Source: Escherichia phage A51.2. From it: 64,000 nucleotides of DNA. Positions 52,761-61,015 of the stretch are shown piece by piece. Below the pieces are notes generated by a model, which saw only the letters and a list, made by a program, of their open reading frames with translations, had not been told where the DNA came from and did no database searches. Location: the sequence record ON286973; one strand, given 5' to 3'. Every line of letters begins with the position of its first letter. Positions within the stretch are counted from its first letter, which is position 1. A program made the position numbers and the translations under genes.

Positions 52761-55538
52761 TTAGTGACAATCACCCCAGTTACGACCGCACAAGTATTCA
52801 CCTGTGATCTGGAATGGAACGCCCATCATTTTAGAAGCTTGCCAGAAGCAATGCACCACCATTTCACCCACAGGGCTCCAGATAAGTTCAAGCTTTCCGT
52901 CATCGTTCAGGATAGGATCGTACACCGTGTTTCCGTCTCTGTCAACCACTTCGTTTCCGTTTTCATCCTTGCGTGCCTTTTTGTACTTATGACCGTCGAA
53001 CACATGAAGTTTGGCTTCCTGCTCTGCCTTAAATGCTTCCAATTCTTCAATTGTGTCGAAGGTGTACACAGTCTTATACTTAGGTGTGTCAGGGACCTGA
53101 AGTTGGTACTCATCATGGTAATAAATAATACGACGGACACCTTCATCGTACCACCCACGCTTCACCATTTGGTGGTGCATGAGTATCCCAACTAAGTCAC
53201 ACAGCGATGCACCACCATTTTGTTGGTATGCATTAAGTAAAGAGTGTTTAGATCGGGTCCAGATAGCATGACCATCAAAAGAGTAGATAAACTTCTTACC
53301 TGTTGCTTCCCAGAATTTCTCCAGATCCTCTTTGCGCCCCTTAAGACCGGGGTTGGCATCCCAAAGTGCATCGATCACCCTTTGCCCCAACTCTGGGGAG
53401 ATATCCAGCATATCTGCGACTTTATCTTTTTGTGCCCCGTACATAACCCCATACGTGATAGGTTTACCGTCGTTACGAGACACCTCTCTGCCTGCTACTT
53501 TTGTATATGCCTCAGCATTGTTTTGGTGTGCGTCTCCGTTACTTACAACATCATAGTACAAGCCGTTGTCGAACTCAAAGGCACCCCAAGCCCCGATAAG
53601 CTGCTCTAAGTTGGACCCGTCAATACCGATCTCAAAATATCCAGGAGGAACACCCCACAAGCTACGCATCTCTTTACCCATAACCACTTTAGGAGATGGT
53701 TTAGGCATGTTTGCACAAATACTGTGTTTCTGTCGGGAAGTGTTTGTTAATCCAGAGCTTTTAGCAGGAAGCTTATGGTCAATCTTCAAACGTGGGTGAT
53801 TAAGAAGACCAGTATCAACCTTATCCTCCTTGATTGGATCAAGGACCGATCTGCGGTTTCGCAATGATAACCACAAGACGATATCTTTAGCCATCTCTCC
53901 GTTCAATTTTTCAAGATTCGGACATAGGTGTCCAAACGTATCTTTCAGTTGCGGAGAAGTAATAAGTGCCCTGGCTTTTCTGCGTATTTTCCCGAACACT
54001 TCCTTTTTAATCCTTTCGGAGTTAGGAAAGCTTCGGAACTTGTGCACTGTTGTCTGAAACTTAGCATCAGTTTTGTTCCAGAAGTTGATAATTAGGTCAC
54101 AATACTCTGACTCTAAAAGCTCGTCCATGTATGCATATACTCGTGCATCAACATCTGCATCAGGTAGAGCTTTCTTCTTGCTGTCCTTAGTTACATCCTT
54201 AGTTCTCCACATTGTCGGAAGCCAACCAGCACTGATCAGGTATCGCTTAATGTCGTCCTGATTGCTGATTTTCATAGGTATCTTGCAGTCAGGCATTCGC
54301 TTCTGCTGCAGATCACTTATTGCCTGATCCATCAGCTCTTTAGGTAAAGGTTGTGGTGTGGAGGTGCCCTTAATATAACCTCTCAAGAAATCAGCCATCT
54401 TGTCGGGGTCTTTGCAGCCCATCTCTTCGCACCATTTTATCCCCATCTTGCTGACATCTCCTGTGGAGGTAAATGCTCGCTTAGGCGGGGCTTTGAATTC
54501 TAAGGCGCTCATGTCTACAGGATAGCCAAGCTTATCTTTTAACCATTTCCAACCATTATTGGAGATTGTCCCATCTTGGTTAAACGGCTTTTCAGGGAAC
54601 TTGGGCCGCTGAGACATTGACAACTCTTTTAAAGGAAGTTGAGGTTCAACACGATCAGCGATCTCTTTCATCCACGCATCGCAACGGTCACGTAAAGCAA
54701 TAGCCCCATCTATGTCGAAATACACACCCTGACGGGCCTGCAGCTCCATCAGGAAGTGCTGCAGCATGCCTCGGCGTAATGCGTTCTTCCAGGTGATTTT
54801 CTTGAACCCTTTCGGCTTCTCTTTGGCTGGATCGTACATAAAGTTCTGCATGTCAGATTTGCCGTAGAATACACCTTTTGATTCCGCTATCAGCTCTTTC
54901 CAGAGCAGCTCCTGGATGATAACGTCCTCGAATACACGATCCACATACTTCCACAACGGAAGATCGCGCCAGTCATCAATTTGAACTTTCTGGTTACCAA
55001 GGGCGTAGCCCCATGCCATAAGGCCGTGAGGACCAACAGGCTGCATTTTCTTAGTAACCGGGTTGAATACAGAGTCCGGACAACCTTTTGGTAAAGGGCG
55101 ATCAGGCCACAAGATTCTGCTCATCGCCAACGTATCAAACAGGTTAACCTGGTGGTCGTTGATAGTCCCCATGCATTTAGGATCACGGAACATATCAAAA
55201 TGAATACCGGATAATCTTTCCATCAGCATAAAGTCATAACTGTAGCAGTTATGGCAGTTCAAAGCTGTTGGTGACCAGTCGGAATTGCCTGTAAGCCAAC
55301 CTTCCAACTCCGAAAAATCTGCTATGCGAACTTCAAAATCTTTATGAAGAGTTTTCTTTGCCAGAATAAAGTTCTTAGCCTTCTCTATATCCTCTTCGGA
55401 GTAGTGTGTGCGGTCATTTAGAGGAAGGAACAGCATAAAACGGTTCTTATTCAGCTCTTTAAACAGGCCGCAGTGATAATAAAGATCTGGATCTTCCAGC
55501 AAACCGGATGACTCAAAGTCGAACGACCACATGCTCAT
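52761..55538 (-). CDS. DNA polymerase, family A, with 3'-5' exonuclease domain
   Basis: 925 aa; exo motif FDFESSG; Pol motif A-like DGSNLEQLIGAW, motif B-like KPITYGVMYGAQ, motif C YYHDEYQ. Confidence 0.85.
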   Translation of the reverse strand: MSMWSFDFESSGLLEDPDLYYHCGLFKELNKNRFMLFLPLNDRTHYSEEDIEKAKNFILAKKTLHKDFEVRIADFSELEGWLTGNSDWSPTALNCHNCYSYDFMLMERLSGIHFDMFRDPKCMGTINDHQVNLFDTLAMSRILWPDRPLPKGCPDSVFNPVTKKMQPVGPHGLMAWGYALGNQKVQIDDWRDLPLWKYVDRVFEDVIIQELLWKELIAESKGVFYGKSDMQNFMYDPAKEKPKGFKKITWKNALRRGMLQHFLMELQARQGVYFDIDGAIALRDRCDAWMKEIADRVEPQLPLKELSMSQRPKFPEKPFNQDGTISNNGWKWLKDKLGYPVDMSALEFKAPPKRAFTSTGDVSKMGIKWCEEMGCKDPDKMADFLRGYIKGTSTPQPLPKELMDQAISDLQQKRMPDCKIPMKISNQDDIKRYLISAGWLPTMWRTKDVTKDSKKKALPDADVDARVYAYMDELLESEYCDLIINFWNKTDAKFQTTVHKFRSFPNSERIKKEVFGKIRRKARALITSPQLKDTFGHLCPNLEKLNGEMAKDIVLWLSLRNRRSVLDPIKEDKVDTGLLNHPRLKIDHKLPAKSSGLTNTSRQKHSICANMPKPSPKVVMGKEMRSLWGVPPGYFEIGIDGSNLEQLIGAWGAFEFDNGLYYDVVSNGDAHQNNAEAYTKVAGREVSRNDGKPITYGVMYGAQKDKVADMLDISPELGQRVIDALWDANPGLKGRKEDLEKFWEATGKKFIYSFDGHAIWTRSKHSLLNAYQQNGGASLCDLVGILMHHQMVKRGWYDEGVRRIIYYHDEYQLQVPDTPKYKTVYTFDTIEELEAFKAEQEAKLHVFDGHKYKKARKDENGNEVVDRDGNTVYDPILNDDGKLELIWSPVGEMVVHCFWQASKMMGVPFQITGEYLCGRNWGDCH

Positions 55539-55596
55539 ATACAGTTCTCCTTAAAGGGGAGGCGGTTGTACTACCCCTCCCACTCTTTGTTAAACA

Positions 55597-57675
55597 TTAA
55601 AAAGGTGTTTCATCATCCTCAAAACCAGGGACCGGATCAGAGGATGGATCATCGTATTGGAGGTCTTCCTGCGTGTCAATAGGCTTGACAGTGGGTGTTA
55701 CAACCTTATCAGCCACAACCTTGCCCATAGGTGTTTCTACAACTGCATGCTCTTGATCCTCAAACATAGCCTGAGGTCTCCAAACAACCTCCCCACCTTC
55801 TCCGTCTGTAAACATCTGCATTTCTTTGTCCCAGTACCAATTACTGGCATCATGGAACTTACCTGTATGCGGATCCATAACTAAAGTGTCAGCAATACCT
55901 AAAGTTTTTGCTGGACGGTTTTTAAGACCTACCAGACGGACACGTCCACGAGAACGATCCACCATTTCTTCGGCCTCGACACCTATGACTACCCAACTCA
56001 ACTGTTCAAGCCCAGCCGATCCTCGCAAATTCTCTTTTCGCACAGGATACCAGAAAGGTAATGGGTTACCATCCTTGTCCTTAGGGGGCACAATCTCTGT
56101 ACGTTTGAGGTGAGCGATCACCAAGATAAACACGTTAAACTGCTTACAAAACGCAGCCAGTTGGGTCATAGCCATGTCCAGTTCTTTTCGCTCATCCTTA
56201 ACATTAAGCCCTGAAATTACCATGGACAGGTGATCCAGCACAATATAACGGCAATGGTACAGGCAAACCATTTGCTTAAGCTTGGTAATCAACTCGTCCA
56301 CCGGAATAGATCCGAAATGTTTGAACACTTTGATTTTTCCAGCTTTTGCCCATGATTGGTGGATCTCTGCGTGTTCTTGATCAGTTAAAAACTGGCTAGG
56401 ATCTTCAACAAACTCTTTAACATCAAACCCTAACTGGTTTGCATACAAGGAGTTAATTGCTTCCTCTGGGTCCTCCTCAAGATGGATCATACATAGACGA
56501 TCATCCTCTTCATAGTCATCAGCCTTCGGGCATGTCGGGTCCATTAGGTATCTTGCAATACAATGTTCCAGTTTTTTAGCTACAGTTGTTTTACCGCCCC
56601 CTGATGGCCCTGTAAGCATTACGAGTGTCCCTTTGTGCAAGCCTTTTAGCATTTTTTGCAGTTTTGGGAACTCTGCGCTGATATCTACCCCGTTGGAAGT
56701 CTTTTTCCGCAAAGACTCGATAGAGAAGTCTTCTAAATCCGACACAGCATCAGGCACATATTTAACAGGGTGCCGGAACATGTTGACAATATCTTCCAGC
56801 TTTTTAGCCTTCAGCATGTCACGGATATCTTTTACCCCGTCAGGGTCATTTACTTCACCAGGGTATTCTACGTGGTAAACGTTATCAGCCATCAAAAATG
56901 CTGCGATATTGTGCGTGGCCTCAACACCTTTAATGACGTGTTTTTGCTTCTCTACCTCGTTAGCTGCATCGTTATCCATTGCCAGCACAACTGTTCCATA
57001 GCTACGGATAAACTTCTCATTGTTTGCAAAAGTATCTACTGCGTTTGCACATCCACAGTTAATTCCAACAAAAGGCAGGCAGGGTTTTCCTGCCAGATCA
57101 CCACCGTTGATAACTGCGTCGATCCCGTCCTGGACCTCTTTAGCCCACTGCTTCACCTTTGCCGGGGCTTTAGCGTTGGTGAGAATCCCTTTTACTTGTA
57201 TCTGATATGCAGCCTGCCATGCTGCAATAACATCACCTTCTCCCTCACAAACGTTAATCTGCTTACGGTTGTTGGAAGATGCACACAGCTTTTGACCAAA
57301 CATCTGGGAGTTGGCCTTTACGATGCCAACAACGGAGAAGTGGCCCCTTTGTTCTTTAGGAATAGTCCAGTCACGCTTTTTGAAACCGGACAGATTTCCG
57401 TAGCGGTCGTAATATGGGAAATATGTTGCAGTGACTGTCACACCGTCTTCTTGTGACAATGCTGATCGCACACCAAAATATTGTGCAGCCATCAGACCGA
57501 TATTTTGTTGTGGGACAGGGACAATTTTAGTATTTTCTAAAACAGTCTCTACAGTTTCAACTTCTTTTTCATCACGATAGTCTCGTTTCACACTTCCCCC
57601 ACTTTTATACTTAGTTGCTTTCGGGTTTGGCTCACCGAAACGGTTGTATGCAGATGCCATAAATTTACTTCCCAT
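55597..57675 (-). CDS. bifunctional primase-helicase (T7 gp4-like: TOPRIM plus DnaB-type helicase)
   Basis: TOPRIM-like EGEGD and DNDAANE; Walker A LTGPSGGGKTT; Walker B IVLDHL. Confidence 0.8.
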   Translation of the reverse strand: MGSKFMASAYNRFGEPNPKATKYKSGGSVKRDYRDEKEVETVETVLENTKIVPVPQQNIGLMAAQYFGVRSALSQEDGVTVTATYFPYYDRYGNLSGFKKRDWTIPKEQRGHFSVVGIVKANSQMFGQKLCASSNNRKQINVCEGEGDVIAAWQAAYQIQVKGILTNAKAPAKVKQWAKEVQDGIDAVINGGDLAGKPCLPFVGINCGCANAVDTFANNEKFIRSYGTVVLAMDNDAANEVEKQKHVIKGVEATHNIAAFLMADNVYHVEYPGEVNDPDGVKDIRDMLKAKKLEDIVNMFRHPVKYVPDAVSDLEDFSIESLRKKTSNGVDISAEFPKLQKMLKGLHKGTLVMLTGPSGGGKTTVAKKLEHCIARYLMDPTCPKADDYEEDDRLCMIHLEEDPEEAINSLYANQLGFDVKEFVEDPSQFLTDQEHAEIHQSWAKAGKIKVFKHFGSIPVDELITKLKQMVCLYHCRYIVLDHLSMVISGLNVKDERKELDMAMTQLAAFCKQFNVFILVIAHLKRTEIVPPKDKDGNPLPFWYPVRKENLRGSAGLEQLSWVVIGVEAEEMVDRSRGRVRLVGLKNRPAKTLGIADTLVMDPHTGKFHDASNWYWDKEMQMFTDGEGGEVVWRPQAMFEDQEHAVVETPMGKVVADKVVTPTVKPIDTQEDLQYDDPSSDPVPGFEDDETPF

Positions 57676-58459
57676 TAATTCTGCTCCTTACTACAGGCTC
57701 GTTTGCTAGGAATACGGCTTTTGCCCAGCCACGTGGTGTGAGGCTTCGAATCATCTTCGTTCTTGCACTCTTTCCACCCAGCTTGGCGTGTTGCATGGAA
57801 TACCCGCTAACCGCGTCAACTATTTGCGGGACAGGTTTTGTGGCTGGGATTATAAATCCATTACCTATCCAGCCGCAAGTTATTTTTGGATAGGCATCAC
57901 GTGGAGCTATAAATTCAGGAAACCATGGGTTTACATCATCTTCCGGTAAATACCCGCCATAATCCGAAGGGTGAAAACGGTAATCAGGTTTGCGCCACAG
58001 TGTGGACATAACACCCACAGGATTCTCTACATGCCACGGGCAATCGTAAATCTCTCCCAGCTCTTCCGCAACCCGAGCATCCTTTACAGCATTAATTTGG
58101 ATCATGGGGTCCTTAGCCAGTTTTTTCTTAAAATGTGCAGCACCTGATACCGCTAAATGCGTGCACGGAGGAAATGCAAGAATAAAATCTGGAGCCGGAT
58201 ACATGCAAAAAGTTTCCTGAGGGAACCACGGGTCAATCCAATAGTCCACATAGTGAATGTTGGGATGATCGGTGATCACCTCTGCATAACTGCCGTGATC
58301 AGCGCCTTCTGCATTAAAGCACAGGCACAGGTACCCAGCTTTTGCCCAGTCAATGACTGCACCACCAGACCCGTCAAATAGACTCCACACAACACCTTTG
58401 TGGTAGTGTTCTTTGTAGATAAATTTCAATTTACTGTCTCCTAATGCAAAAAGCCCCAC
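57665..58459 (-). CDS. minimal C5-cytosine methyltransferase-like protein
   Basis: 264 aa with motif I LFDGSGG, motif IV FPPC, motif VI-like VENP in canonical order; no obvious target-recognition domain. Confidence 0.5.
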   Translation of the reverse strand: MGLFALGDSKLKFIYKEHYHKGVVWSLFDGSGGAVIDWAKAGYLCLCFNAEGADHGSYAEVITDHPNIHYVDYWIDPWFPQETFCMYPAPDFILAFPPCTHLAVSGAAHFKKKLAKDPMIQINAVKDARVAEELGEIYDCPWHVENPVGVMSTLWRKPDYRFHPSDYGGYLPEDDVNPWFPEFIAPRDAYPKITCGWIGNGFIIPATKPVPQIVDAVSGYSMQHAKLGGKSARTKMIRSLTPRGWAKAVFLANEPVVRSRINGK

Positions 58460-58480
58460 CCTTTCGGGCAGGGCCTAGTG

Positions 58481-58963
58481 TTAAACCCGGATACCTATTG
58501 TATACTCGGTGGATACCAATGTCAAATCTAAATTTAAAATTTCTTGCATCTCATAATATGCGTCCAGGGTTAGATACATTTCCCCATCCTTTTCTGCATA
58601 CTTGTCCAAGTGCTTAAGGCATTTCGGATAACTATCGAGTGCAGCTTTCAGACACTCAAATTCTGTGCTGTTAATGAATCCTTCCATCTTAGCTACCCGT
58701 TCTGGAGTAACGATAGCACTGTAGTGAGATTTAGCTTCCTGAATGCAATGGGTCCAAGCATCAACTTTCTCTTCGAAAAGCCCGAAGAACTTCTTTTTGG
58801 TGAGCTTCAGATTCTTTAAGTGCTTAAGCACTCGGTTGCCGATCACAGCCACATCACGAAACTTAAGGATCACTTTGTCGATATCCTCGCGGCCTATTTT
58901 CACAAAGCAAGCCTCGCACATTTCAGGAGTGGCATAGCCTACTTTCCACATAAAATCTGACAT
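58481..58963 (-). CDS. hypothetical protein
   Basis: 160-aa ORF. Confidence 0.45.
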   Translation of the reverse strand: MSDFMWKVGYATPEMCEACFVKIGREDIDKVILKFRDVAVIGNRVLKHLKNLKLTKKKFFGLFEEKVDAWTHCIQEAKSHYSAIVTPERVAKMEGFINSTEFECLKAALDSYPKCLKHLDKYAEKDGEMYLTLDAYYEMQEILNLDLTLVSTEYTIGIRV

Positions 58964-58975
58964 AACACCCTCTCC

Positions 58976-59371
58976 TTATTCCTGAAAAGCAACGATATCA
59001 TATGAACTTGCAGATGATCCTGGTGAAGAATGACTCCAGTCTAGGTCATCAGAGTAGTCAGCGTACTGTGCACCACTACGTAGTTTGTATTTTACCCACT
59101 TACCTGGTGCAGGGTTTTCACCACCTTCCCATACTTCCCAGCCTTCTGGCAGGCCGTCCTGGGGGTAGTCATCCACCTCACTAATAATCTTAGGGTTTGG
59201 CACCAAGATCCCTGCAGGCTCTTCCTTCCTGATAAGTGTCCACACAGCGTAGGTGTCTGAGCAGGCGCATGATAGCAAAGTATATCCACTATTCAGAACT
59301 TCTGCAAGCTCTTTCTCAGCATCTTCCAACTTGGTTAAGTGGTATTGGACAATCTTCACATCTGTAATCAT
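58976..59371 (-). CDS. hypothetical protein
   Basis: 131-aa ORF. Confidence 0.45.
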   Translation of the reverse strand: MITDVKIVQYHLTKLEDAEKELAEVLNSGYTLLSCACSDTYAVWTLIRKEEPAGILVPNPKIISEVDDYPQDGLPEGWEVWEGGENPAPGKWVKYKLRSGAQYADYSDDLDWSHSSPGSSASSYDIVAFQE

Positions 59372-59715
59372 CAGAAACCTCCCACTTCTTCGGCAAATGC
59401 AGCTGCTGTCGTCGCTGCATCAAGATAGGACTCTAGTTCACGGGCTGCACGTTTGTAAATTGAGTGGCGCATATCGTTTGGCAGTTTGTGGAAGTCCACC
59501 TCTTCACCGTTGTGGTAAGCATGCACATCAGTGATCTGTCTAAATCCATAATAGTCAACATCAGAATCACGACACTCTGGGTCTGGCAACTGGACAACTG
59601 CCTGAGCTTCCACAGTGAACATATCGTCAAGTTCAAAATCGATTTCAAAAGTGTATGGTTTATAACGTTTCATCATTTGATTGTACTCTTTATTGATCAG
59701 ACTTATCTTTCGCAA
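59371..59715 (-). CDS. hypothetical protein
   Basis: 114-aa ORF. Confidence 0.45.
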   Translation of the reverse strand: MRKISLINKEYNQMMKRYKPYTFEIDFELDDMFTVEAQAVVQLPDPECRDSDVDYYGFRQITDVHAYHNGEEVDFHKLPNDMRHSIYKRAARELESYLDAATTAAAFAEEVGGF

Positions 59716-61015
59716 CTAAGGCCGGGGCAAGTTTGTAATAACGGAAGCCACCACCACCTTGCCAGTTTACAGACTTAGAAATACCACCTTGATCTTCGCC
59801 ATCGATCACTTTTTCCAAGCGCGGAATAATATGGGTATGACAATGATCACCTAGCTCGATTGAGATCCAGCGTCTTTTCATCTTATGAGCTACAGCAGCA
59901 GTAGTTCCCGAACCACCGAATGAATCCAATACCAAATCGCCTTCTCGCGTGCACATTTCGAAAATCCGCTTCAAAAGCGCTTCTGGTTTTTTCCCATTTT
60001 TGAAACTAACGCCGCCTTCATTTGCTATTCCATTCCAACTAATGTCTGTCCAAACATCAGTTATTAGTTCCGCAGGTTGCATCTCACCGTCAATTTCCAA
60101 AAGCCTATTGGAGTAAAAGACCATTTGCCTACCATTTGCGATATAAAATCCTTCAACATCCTCATTTGGATGTACATAAACCTTATCCCTATCTTTCTTT
60201 GACTTCTCGATAGTTTCTTTTCTCTTTATTTTAGCACCACCACCAATTGCAACAGATTGAAATACACGTTCTGCATTATCAATTGCGAATTGTGCTAATT
60301 CATCATCGAATGTATCAGGCAGTTTTTTCTTGGCTTCTTTTGCATCTTTATAGCCATTGGCCTTTGCAAACGCATCGGCAATACCGCACCACGTCCAATT
60401 TTTATAATGGTCATCCGGGTTTAATAGGTATTTGTTATATCCTGTATCATACCCTTTAGGTATATAGATTTTGTTAAGCGGTTTCTGGGTGCGATCTTTT
60501 GCATATACAAGCAAAAAGTTTGCTGTGGAGAAAACTGTGGCTCCTGTTGCCTTAAATCCCGAAGGGGAATTTGTGGTCATCGATATAGTATTTAACTGAT
60601 TTGCACGACCAAAAATCTCGTCCATCAAAACTTTTAAATACGCCATTTCGCAATCATCTAAGTGAACGAATATTACCCCATCATCACTTAGAAGATTACG
60701 AATTATTTCTAACCTATCCCTCATTAAGCCCAGCCAAATGGAATGCTCCAGGCTATCATCGTAATGCTCAAAAGCCCTCCCGGTATTGAATGGTGGGTCT
60801 ATGTAAACACACTTCACTTTGCCTGCATACTCTTGCTCTAGCGCCTTCAATGCTAATAAGTTATCTCCAAAAATCAGTTTATTATCAAAAATATCGTTTT
60901 CGGTCACTTTCTGGCTGTGGTAAGATTTGCTAGAATCTTCTAACAAAATGTGTGGCTCTAACTTTTTGCGCTCGTTTTTACCTATCCAGGTAAGTTCTAA
61001 TTTGGTTTTGCTCAT
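59690..61015 (-). CDS. beta-class DNA methyltransferase (N6-adenine or N4-cytosine; Type III Mod-like)
   Basis: N-terminal LTWIGKNE, motif IV DPPF, C-terminal motif I DSFGGSGTT. Confidence 0.75.
   Translation of the reverse strand: MSKTKLELTWIGKNERKKLEPHILLEDSSKSYHSQKVTENDIFDNKLIFGDNLLALKALEQEYAGKVKCVYIDPPFNTGRAFEHYDDSLEHSIWLGLMRDRLEIIRNLLSDDGVIFVHLDDCEMAYLKVLMDEIFGRANQLNTISMTTNSPSGFKATGATVFSTANFLLVYAKDRTQKPLNKIYIPKGYDTGYNKYLLNPDDHYKNWTWCGIADAFAKANGYKDAKEAKKKLPDTFDDELAQFAIDNAERVFQSVAIGGGAKIKRKETIEKSKKDRDKVYVHPNEDVEGFYIANGRQMVFYSNRLLEIDGEMQPAELITDVWTDISWNGIANEGGVSFKNGKKPEALLKRIFEMCTREGDLVLDSFGGSGTTAAVAHKMKRRWISIELGDHCHTHIIPRLEKVIDGEDQGGISKSVNWQGGGGFRYYKLAPALVAKDKSDQ

Follow-up and report, generated by a model that had tools for sequence, protein, structure and literature searches.

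A gene for a predicted short Dcm-like DNA cytosine-C5 methyltransferase overlapping the primase-helicase gene of an rV5-like Escherichia phage

Locus and gene boundaries

The window analysed here is a stretch of 64,000 nucleotides (nt) from Escherichia phage A51.2 (sequence record ON286973). It carries, directly upstream of the gene of a primase-helicase, a short gene for a predicted DNA cytosine-C5 methyltransferase, which is the subject of this work. The following features were located at the gene:

57665..58429, minus strand: coding sequence (CDS) of the predicted short Dcm-like DNA cytosine-C5 methyltransferase, a member of PHROG 757 with 100% identity to bas51_0074 of phage WalterGehring; the maximal open reading frame (ORF) extends to GTG 58459
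58437..58442, minus strand: Shine-Dalgarno sequence AGGAGA, read from the sequence, 7 nt upstream of the TTG start codon
58451..58476, minus strand: terminator-like GC-rich hairpin with a T-run, separating the upstream ORF from the methylase start
58497..58525, minus strand: candidate sigma70-like promoter TTGACA-17-TACAAT upstream of the methylase, a match to the consensus only (11/12)
57665..57675, minus strand: 11-nt overlap of the methylase and primase-helicase genes, according to the ORF coordinates and the WalterGehring annotation
55597..57675, minus strand: primase-helicase of 692 amino acids (aa), DnaB_C/AAA_25, downstream of the methylase

The ORF at 57665..58459 on the minus strand is a real gene. 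Its coordinates and its length of 264 aa, as given in a preliminary description of the window, matched the ORF listing exactly, in which it begins with GTG. The length of 264 aa applies to the maximal ORF, however, whereas the coding sequence is most likely 57665..58429 (minus strand), starting with TTG at 58429, 30 bases downstream of the GTG, and resulting in a protein of 254 aa. The TTG was taken as the start because GTG 58459 falls within the stem of the hairpin at 58476..58451, AGGAGA (58442..58437) precedes the TTG by 7 nt, and the identical protein has 254 aa in the GenBank CDSs and in database gene calls. Residue numbers refer to the 254-aa protein, in which Cys89 corresponds to Cys99 of the 264-aa numbering.

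The overlap with the primase-helicase gene had been attributed in the same description to the start of the methylase. The overlap exists, but it is the stop end of the methylase that is involved. Both genes are on the minus strand with the methylase upstream; its stop codon TAA is located at 57667..57665, and its last 11 nt (57675..57665) overlap the primase-helicase gene, which begins with ATG at 57675. The Shine-Dalgarno sequence of the primase-helicase, AAGGAG, falls inside the methylase reading frame, and the identical arrangement of the two genes was found in the annotation of WalterGehring. On the other side of the methylase, the sigma70-like promoter (58525..58497) falls within the 3'-terminal part of the upstream ORF and is directly followed by the hairpin (58476..58451) and then by the ribosome binding site of the methylase.

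Identity and previous annotation

The window comes from an rV5-like Vequintavirus. Over the 3.9 kb surrounding the gene, more than 100 genomes of rV5-like Vequintavirus, among them slur16, inoa, nom, WalterGehring and variants of rV5, were 97-99.4% identical to it. The 254-aa protein was 100% identical to WalterGehring bas51_0074, which is annotated as a 'Dcm-like C5 cytosine methyltransferase'. The exact protein sequence is named 'DNA cytosine methyltransferase' in NCBI and 'Site specific DNA methylase, n=9 Vequintavirus' in UniRef, and it was present on at least 250 contigs. An HHpred-predicted DNA cytosine methylase adjoining an N6-adenine methylase has already been listed in the Vequintavirinae literature. 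The novelty implied in the preliminary description was therefore not sustained: the gene is already annotated in GenBank and RefSeq relatives and is an ordinary member of a large family of short phage methylases, one member of which has been characterised experimentally. In the same comparison, 16 GenBank records titled 'Campylobacter phage' (host C. jejuni; e.g. MG065658.1) were at least 95% identical to the E. coli Vequintavirus segment. These records probably represent mislabelled hosts or contaminating coliphages.

The PHROG 757 family

The window protein matched PHROG 757 ('DNA methyltransferase') over its full length (residues 10-261) with an E value of 3.4e-87. Homologs were detected by tblastn in 1,503 phage records, among them phages of Escherichia, Klebsiella, Salmonella, Shigella and Vibrio; the groups covered include Drexlerviridae, Dhillonvirus, Vequintavirinae, phiKO2 and T4-like phages whose cytosine is unmodified. 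A search of 5.8 billion proteins in a 90%-cluster database resulted in 3,549 homologs at E<=1e-3, almost all of them 220-260 aa long. Together with the PHROG match, this number places the occurrence of the methyltransferase motifs far outside chance. With an exhaustive profile search of 1.84 billion cluster representatives (50% identity), 2,052 clusters were obtained at E<=1e-3 and 211 at E<=1e-30, mostly with lengths of 200-260 aa. As the homologs are about 200-260 aa long throughout, the short length of the window protein is the norm of a large and old family and not the result of truncation. The members of PHROG 757 come from Drexlerviridae, Dhillonvirus, Kagunavirus, Krischvirus-like T4 relatives, Vequintavirinae and phiKO2-type prophages; the window protein matches their profile over its full length and is of typical size, with no essential difference, and the rV5 clade forms its own subgroup with 79-100% identity.

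The protein had been described as too short for a normal target-recognition domain (TRD), which comprises roughly 80-90 residues in M.HhaI. This was confirmed, as the strand resembling motif VIII and the conserved C-terminal block are separated by only about 38 residues (190-227). The absence of a normal TRD is a property of the whole family, given the lengths of its members, and is not peculiar to the window gene. In a few relatives (P0247, P0261 and P0268, 401-563 aa) the short methylase domain is fused into bigger proteins, and a 1,397-aa 'Helicase/UvrB N-terminal' phage protein containing the short methylase domain was found in BFVD (A0A6J5SE15_1). This large family escapes the models of Pfam and NCBIfam, and consequently many of its records are still named 'hypothetical protein'.

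Conserved motifs

The motifs of the protein and their equivalents in the Dcm of phages K42 and KarlJaspers, the characterised homolog described below, are located as follows:

58364..58378, minus strand: motif I, F18-D-G-S-G22, the SAM (S-adenosylmethionine)-binding loop, aligned with motif I of M.HaeIII and DNMT3B and nearly invariant in the close family
58163..58171, minus strand: motif IV, P87-P88-C89, with the catalytic cysteine; C89 corresponds to C82 of the K42/KarlJaspers Dcm, which is mutated in Dcm-mut
58019..58027, minus strand: motif VI, E135-N136-P137; E135 corresponds to E128 of K42 Dcm
57884..57886, minus strand: K182 in the motif-VIII-like D178-x-Y180-x-K182-x-T184, before the strand 184-189; it corresponds to K175 of K42 Dcm
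57749..57862, minus strand: reduced target-recognition-like segment, residues 190-227, with GNGF..P, the variable loop 196-215 of the GYSxQH type, and KLGGKSxRTK
57701..57748, minus strand: C-terminal block R228-S-L-T-P-R-G-W-A-K-A-V-F-L-A-N243, which starts the C-terminal helix and is motif IX- or motif X-like

The sequences LFDGSGG (motif I), FPPC (motif IV) and VENP (motif VI), from which the protein had been recognised in the preliminary description, were all present and in the canonical order. The conservation was determined from an alignment of 46 diverse relatives which are 32-54% identical to the window protein. The residues C89, G96, E135, P137, P154, Y180, W187 and P195 were invariant, and L17, F86, P87, T90, N136, R146, D178, K182, T184, R228, S229 and P232 were nearly invariant. 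In motif I, which has the signature FxGxG in the superfamily, the wider family carries FDxTG. The superfamily form of motif VI is ENV, and its Glu makes contact with the target cytosine. The motif-VIII-like segment of the window protein reads D178-A-Y180-P-K182-I-T184, with a lysine in place of the arginines. The loop 196-215 was the most variable part of the family and had the lowest predicted local distance difference test (pLDDT) values of the structural model described in the next section (71-85). Two subtypes of the loop were distinguished: GYSxQ[HY] in the window protein, most relatives and the Dhillonvirus PaulFeyerabend, and DNPGW in KarlJaspers. The C-terminal block has the family consensus R228-SLTPRG-x-A-x-AVF-x-AN243 and is a single conserved block; the segment available for recognition has only about 38 residues.

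Predicted fold and relation to C5-methyltransferases

The AlphaFold2 model, calculated with a 40-sequence alignment, was confident, with a pLDDT of 90.5 and a predicted template modelling score (pTM) of 0.90. The Foldseek search against the PDB placed DNMT3A and DNMT3B at the top with an E value of 1.7e-6 and a template modelling score (TM) of about 0.5. The best structural matches in BFVD were phage 'DNA-cytosine methylases' of the same family with a TM of up to 0.91. All the best structural matches of the predicted fold were C5-cytosine methyltransferases. Thus, the structure prediction that had been proposed as a check of the preliminary description resulted in a class I SAM-dependent methyltransferase fold of the C5-cytosine type.

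At the sequence level, 22 of 40 close relatives matched PF00145 at E<=1, with the best E value of 1.3e-6. Three relatives tested, P0055, P0071 and P0072, reached 24.7-28.5 bits compared with the PF00145 gathering cut-off of 22, in the N-terminal third only (profile positions 4 to about 94, motifs I-IV). DNMT3B and M.HaeIII were the sole matches of the family profile among the PDB sequences, and both were aligned over motifs I-IV. A phmmer search of the PDB with the window protein itself resulted in sub-significant matches only.

The catalytic domains of DNMT3A and DNMT3B are the closest solved structures, although their identity to the window protein is 12-17%. The DNMT3 domain differs from it in its length of about 285 aa, its RxR motif VIII and its action on CpG as an oligomer. 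M.HhaI and M.HaeIII, both of PF00145, are about 325 aa long and have a TRD of 80-90 aa, a QxRxR motif VIII and a GN motif X, whereas the window protein remains below PF00145.

Homology with the Dcm of phage K42

The characterised member of the family, which triggers retron Ec86, is the product of the 711-bp 'Dcm-like' gene of phage K42, described in a preprint on retron Ec86 (bioRxiv 10.1101/2023.08.16.553469). In that study, all four of four K42 escapers were mutated in this gene or just upstream of it, and expression of K42 Dcm was toxic only when retron Ec86 was present. By liquid chromatography coupled to mass spectrometry (LC-MS), a high level of 5-methylcytosine (5mC) was detected on the multicopy single-stranded DNA (msDNA) of Ec86 with wild-type K42 Dcm, and a low level with the C82A/E128A/K175A/K176A mutant or the empty vector. 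The residues C82, E128, K175 and K176 were mutated only jointly, and K175 and K176 were treated as a substrate-binding pair. The Ec86 defence was lost when the CCTGG motif in the msDNA was altered. The Dcm-like gene was present in 34 of the 35 Ec86-sensitive phages (bioRxiv 10.1101/2023.08.16.553469).

The K42 genome was 95.4% identical to KarlJaspers (Bas06), whose bas06_0055 (711 bp), a near-identical ortholog of K42 Dcm, was 54% identical over 235 aa to the protein of the window (E 2e-86). The residues C82, E128 and K175 of the K42/KarlJaspers Dcm aligned with C89, E135 and K182, respectively. Taken together, the LC-MS results with K42 Dcm, the 54% identity and the aligned cysteine, glutamate and lysine indicate that the family has a member with a demonstrated formation of 5mC in DNA dependent on motif residues which are conserved here. 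The two proteins belong to the same family, share the architecture and motifs, are both short (236 aa compared with 254 aa here) and are both encoded by lytic coliphages. They differ in that K42 and KarlJaspers belong to Drexlerviridae and the present phage to Vequintavirinae, the genomic neighbours are not the same, and the window protein is extended by about 9 aa at its N-terminus and has a C-terminal helix longer than that of KarlJaspers Dcm. The earlier suggestion of a minimal cytosine C5-methylase is supported by the C5-methyltransferase fold, by the cysteine and glutamate invariant in the 46 relatives and by the formation of 5mC in vivo by the 54%-identical homolog.

Proposed function and target site

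Based on these results, the gene, a member of the short, phage-specific 'Dcm-like' family PHROG 757, very probably encodes a SAM-dependent DNA (cytosine-5)-methyltransferase, which would protect the replicating phage DNA from restriction, probably at CCWGG. The mechanism is proposed from the conserved chemistry of the C5-methyltransferases. Motif I (F18-D-G-S-G22) would hold SAM, and base flipping would bring the target cytosine out of the duplex. The Cys89 of the PPC motif would then attack C6, Glu135 of the ENP motif would protonate N3, the methyl group would be transferred to C5, and the enzyme would be released by beta-elimination. Lys182 may stand in for the usual arginines of motif VIII. 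The target would be read by the reduced segment at about 190-227 together with the strongly conserved insert 138-183. The enzyme is presumably made during phage DNA replication, because its gene is situated in the replication module and is translationally overlapped with the primase-helicase, to which its expression is probably coupled. The resulting 5mC would mark the replicating phage DNA against host restriction, most probably at CCWGG and hence against EcoRII-type enzymes. A known side effect in the family is that retron Ec86 can sense the methylase.

The DNA of Klebsiella phage KP36 was fully resistant to EcoRII in spite of 155 in-silico EcoRII sites, and a 2013 paper credited this to the host, stating that the phage is without a cytosine methylase. 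KP36 gp74 (L004:17553-18245, minus strand) is, however, a 48%-identical member of the present family with PSC instead of PPC and may be the cause of the resistance, which gives circumstantial support for CCWGG. The window contains 129 CCWGG sites with an observed/expected ratio of 0.85; this is no strong avoidance and does not discriminate between the hypotheses. In the whole window, CTAG was strongly under-represented (observed/expected 0.47) and GTAC moderately (0.67), whereas GATC was not avoided (1.05).

The name of the family originates from E. coli Dcm, which, with M.EcoRII, has presumably the same product (C-5mC-WGG, inner C) and the same catalytic chemistry. E. coli Dcm has 472 aa with a full TRD, compared with the 254 aa here, and is not an ortholog. 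The orthology was rejected by hhalign with the family profile, in which E. coli Dcm had a probability of 0.3% over 25 columns around the PC motif only. Since there is no profile similarity to E. coli Dcm beyond this motif, 'Dcm-like' is a functional label and not a statement of orthology. If the present family and E. coli Dcm share CCWGG, the element that reads it here is unrelated and much smaller.

Several observations weigh against the proposed function and target. The window protein reached no relevant Pfam or NCBIfam model and did not match PF00145 even at E<=10; the canonical QxRxR motif VIII is absent from it, and a GN-type motif X was not recognisable. The equivalent of K176 of K42 Dcm is Ile183, with I or L at this position across the rV5 clade and Leu in Dhillonvirus, and the variable loop is of the GYSxQH subtype as opposed to DNPGW in K42/KarlJaspers. 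The CCWGG target was adopted in the retron study from E. coli Dcm, without mapping (bioRxiv 10.1101/2023.08.16.553469). In the same study, when the phage enzyme was absent, msDNA from dcm+ MG1655 contained little 5mC and the retron remained silent (bioRxiv 10.1101/2023.08.16.553469), which leaves room for a different methylated position or an access effect. The EcoRII resistance of KP36 is confounded by the host Dcm. The literature search for measured cytosine methylation in rV5 and Vequintavirinae resulted in predictions only, a search for nanopore 5mC data on the BASEL phages resulted in unrelated papers, and the EcoSal review of restriction-modification contained nothing about the family. 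In the BASEL study such methylase genes were abundant, but they did not simply correlate with resistance to the six restriction-modification systems used there; none of the six targets CCWGG.

Alternative explanations

The same 5mC chemistry on DNA could be combined with a target other than CCWGG, or a more relaxed one, in the rV5-type enzyme, which seems rather unlikely. Such a target would not be surprising with no more than about 38 residues for recognition, and the origin of the CCWGG assignment in E. coli Dcm, the different subtype of the loop 196-215, the replacement of K176 with Ile and the hhalign result beyond motif IV point in the same direction. On the other hand, the family shows very strong conservation on both sides of the variable loop, which argues for a common target. 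The GYSxQ[HY] loop is shared by the Dhillonvirus enzymes, together with a Lys-Leu pair, and small siphoviruses with such a Dcm are among the Ec86-sensitive phages, whose restriction depends on the CCTGG motif; the resistance of KP36 DNA to EcoRII also speaks for CCWGG. A related and similarly doubtful proposal is that the rV5-type enzyme, possibly with the whole family of about 200-260 aa, reads its target with a recognition module that resembles none in the structurally characterised C5-methyltransferases; the target or the methylated position may differ from C-5mC-WGG. It is hinted at by the GYSxQH loop, by Lys-Ile in place of Lys-Lys, and by the msDNA which is not already methylated in the dcm+ host. 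If this proposal is true, these proteins would be the smallest sequence-specific DNA C5-methyltransferases.

The remaining explanations concern the substrate or the transferred group. The preliminary description had considered a C5-pyrimidine-modifying enzyme acting on nucleotides, i.e. on free deoxycytidine mono- or triphosphate (dCMP/dCTP) before incorporation, for which only the small size and the missing normal TRD can be quoted. The known nucleotide-level C5 modifiers have a thymidylate-synthase fold and are folate-dependent, whereas the window protein has the fold of a DNA C5-methyltransferase and nothing thymidylate-synthase-like was matched. Moreover, the conserved basic block KLGGKSxRTKxIRSLTPRG fits DNA binding, and the K42-type homolog methylates polymeric msDNA at a site-dependent position. 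In about 50 kb of the near-identical relative WalterGehring around the gene, no dCMP-modifying, dCTPase, CmoA/CmoY or glycosyltransferase-type hypermodification genes are annotated. On account of the fold, the activity of the homolog and the gene context, the dCMP-level explanation was rejected as the least credible one.

The transfer of a group other than methyl as a handle for hypermodification, e.g. carboxymethyl from carboxy-S-adenosylmethionine (Cx-SAM), is highly improbable. It is known from CmoX, a phage DNA cytosine C5-carboxymethyltransferase (PDB 8yf3, PMC12783734), which has SPPC and the carboxylate-binding Arg350 and co-occurs with CmoA/CmoY. This signature was not found in the window protein or its neighbourhood, as the protein has FPPC instead of SPPC and no equivalent of the Arg region, and CmoA/CmoY are not among the neighbours. 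Equally little weight was given to an RNA (tRNA) m5C methyltransferase similar to Dnmt2 or to a catalytically dead DNA-binding or regulatory protein. DNA methyltransferases outscored Dnmt2 in the structural comparison, and an inactive protein is made improbable by the catalytic residues, which are invariant over about 2,000 clusters. The 5mC produced in DNA by the K42-type homolog also speaks against this explanation.

With a DNA cytosine-5 methyltransferase at this locus, the self-methylation of rV5-like phages may shape their escape from, or triggering of, restriction systems, type IV enzymes and retrons (Ec86/Eco1), which is of modest relevance to phage biology and therapy. For enzymology, the family is of modest interest as a group of very small C5-methyltransferases.

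Genomic context

The gene belongs to a replication module with the order Pif1-like helicase, small ORF, N6/N4 methylase, three small ORFs, Dcm-like methylase, primase-helicase and DNA polymerase. The second methylase of the module is the following:

59690..61015, minus strand: N6/N4 DNA methyltransferase of 441 aa (PF01555 N6_N4_Mtase, E 4e-42), annotated in WalterGehring as 'putative N6 adenine methyltransferase'

The three small ORFs between both methylases (58481..58963, 58976..59371 and 59371..59715) had no Pfam match. The DNA polymerase (52761..55597, minus strand) directly follows the primase-helicase and is one unbroken ORF of 925 aa. In WalterGehring, homing-endonuclease genes are present between the primase and the polymerase and also inside the polymerase gene, which is annotated as a joined CDS, and an annotated homing-endonuclease gene is located in the same segment of EmilHeitz.

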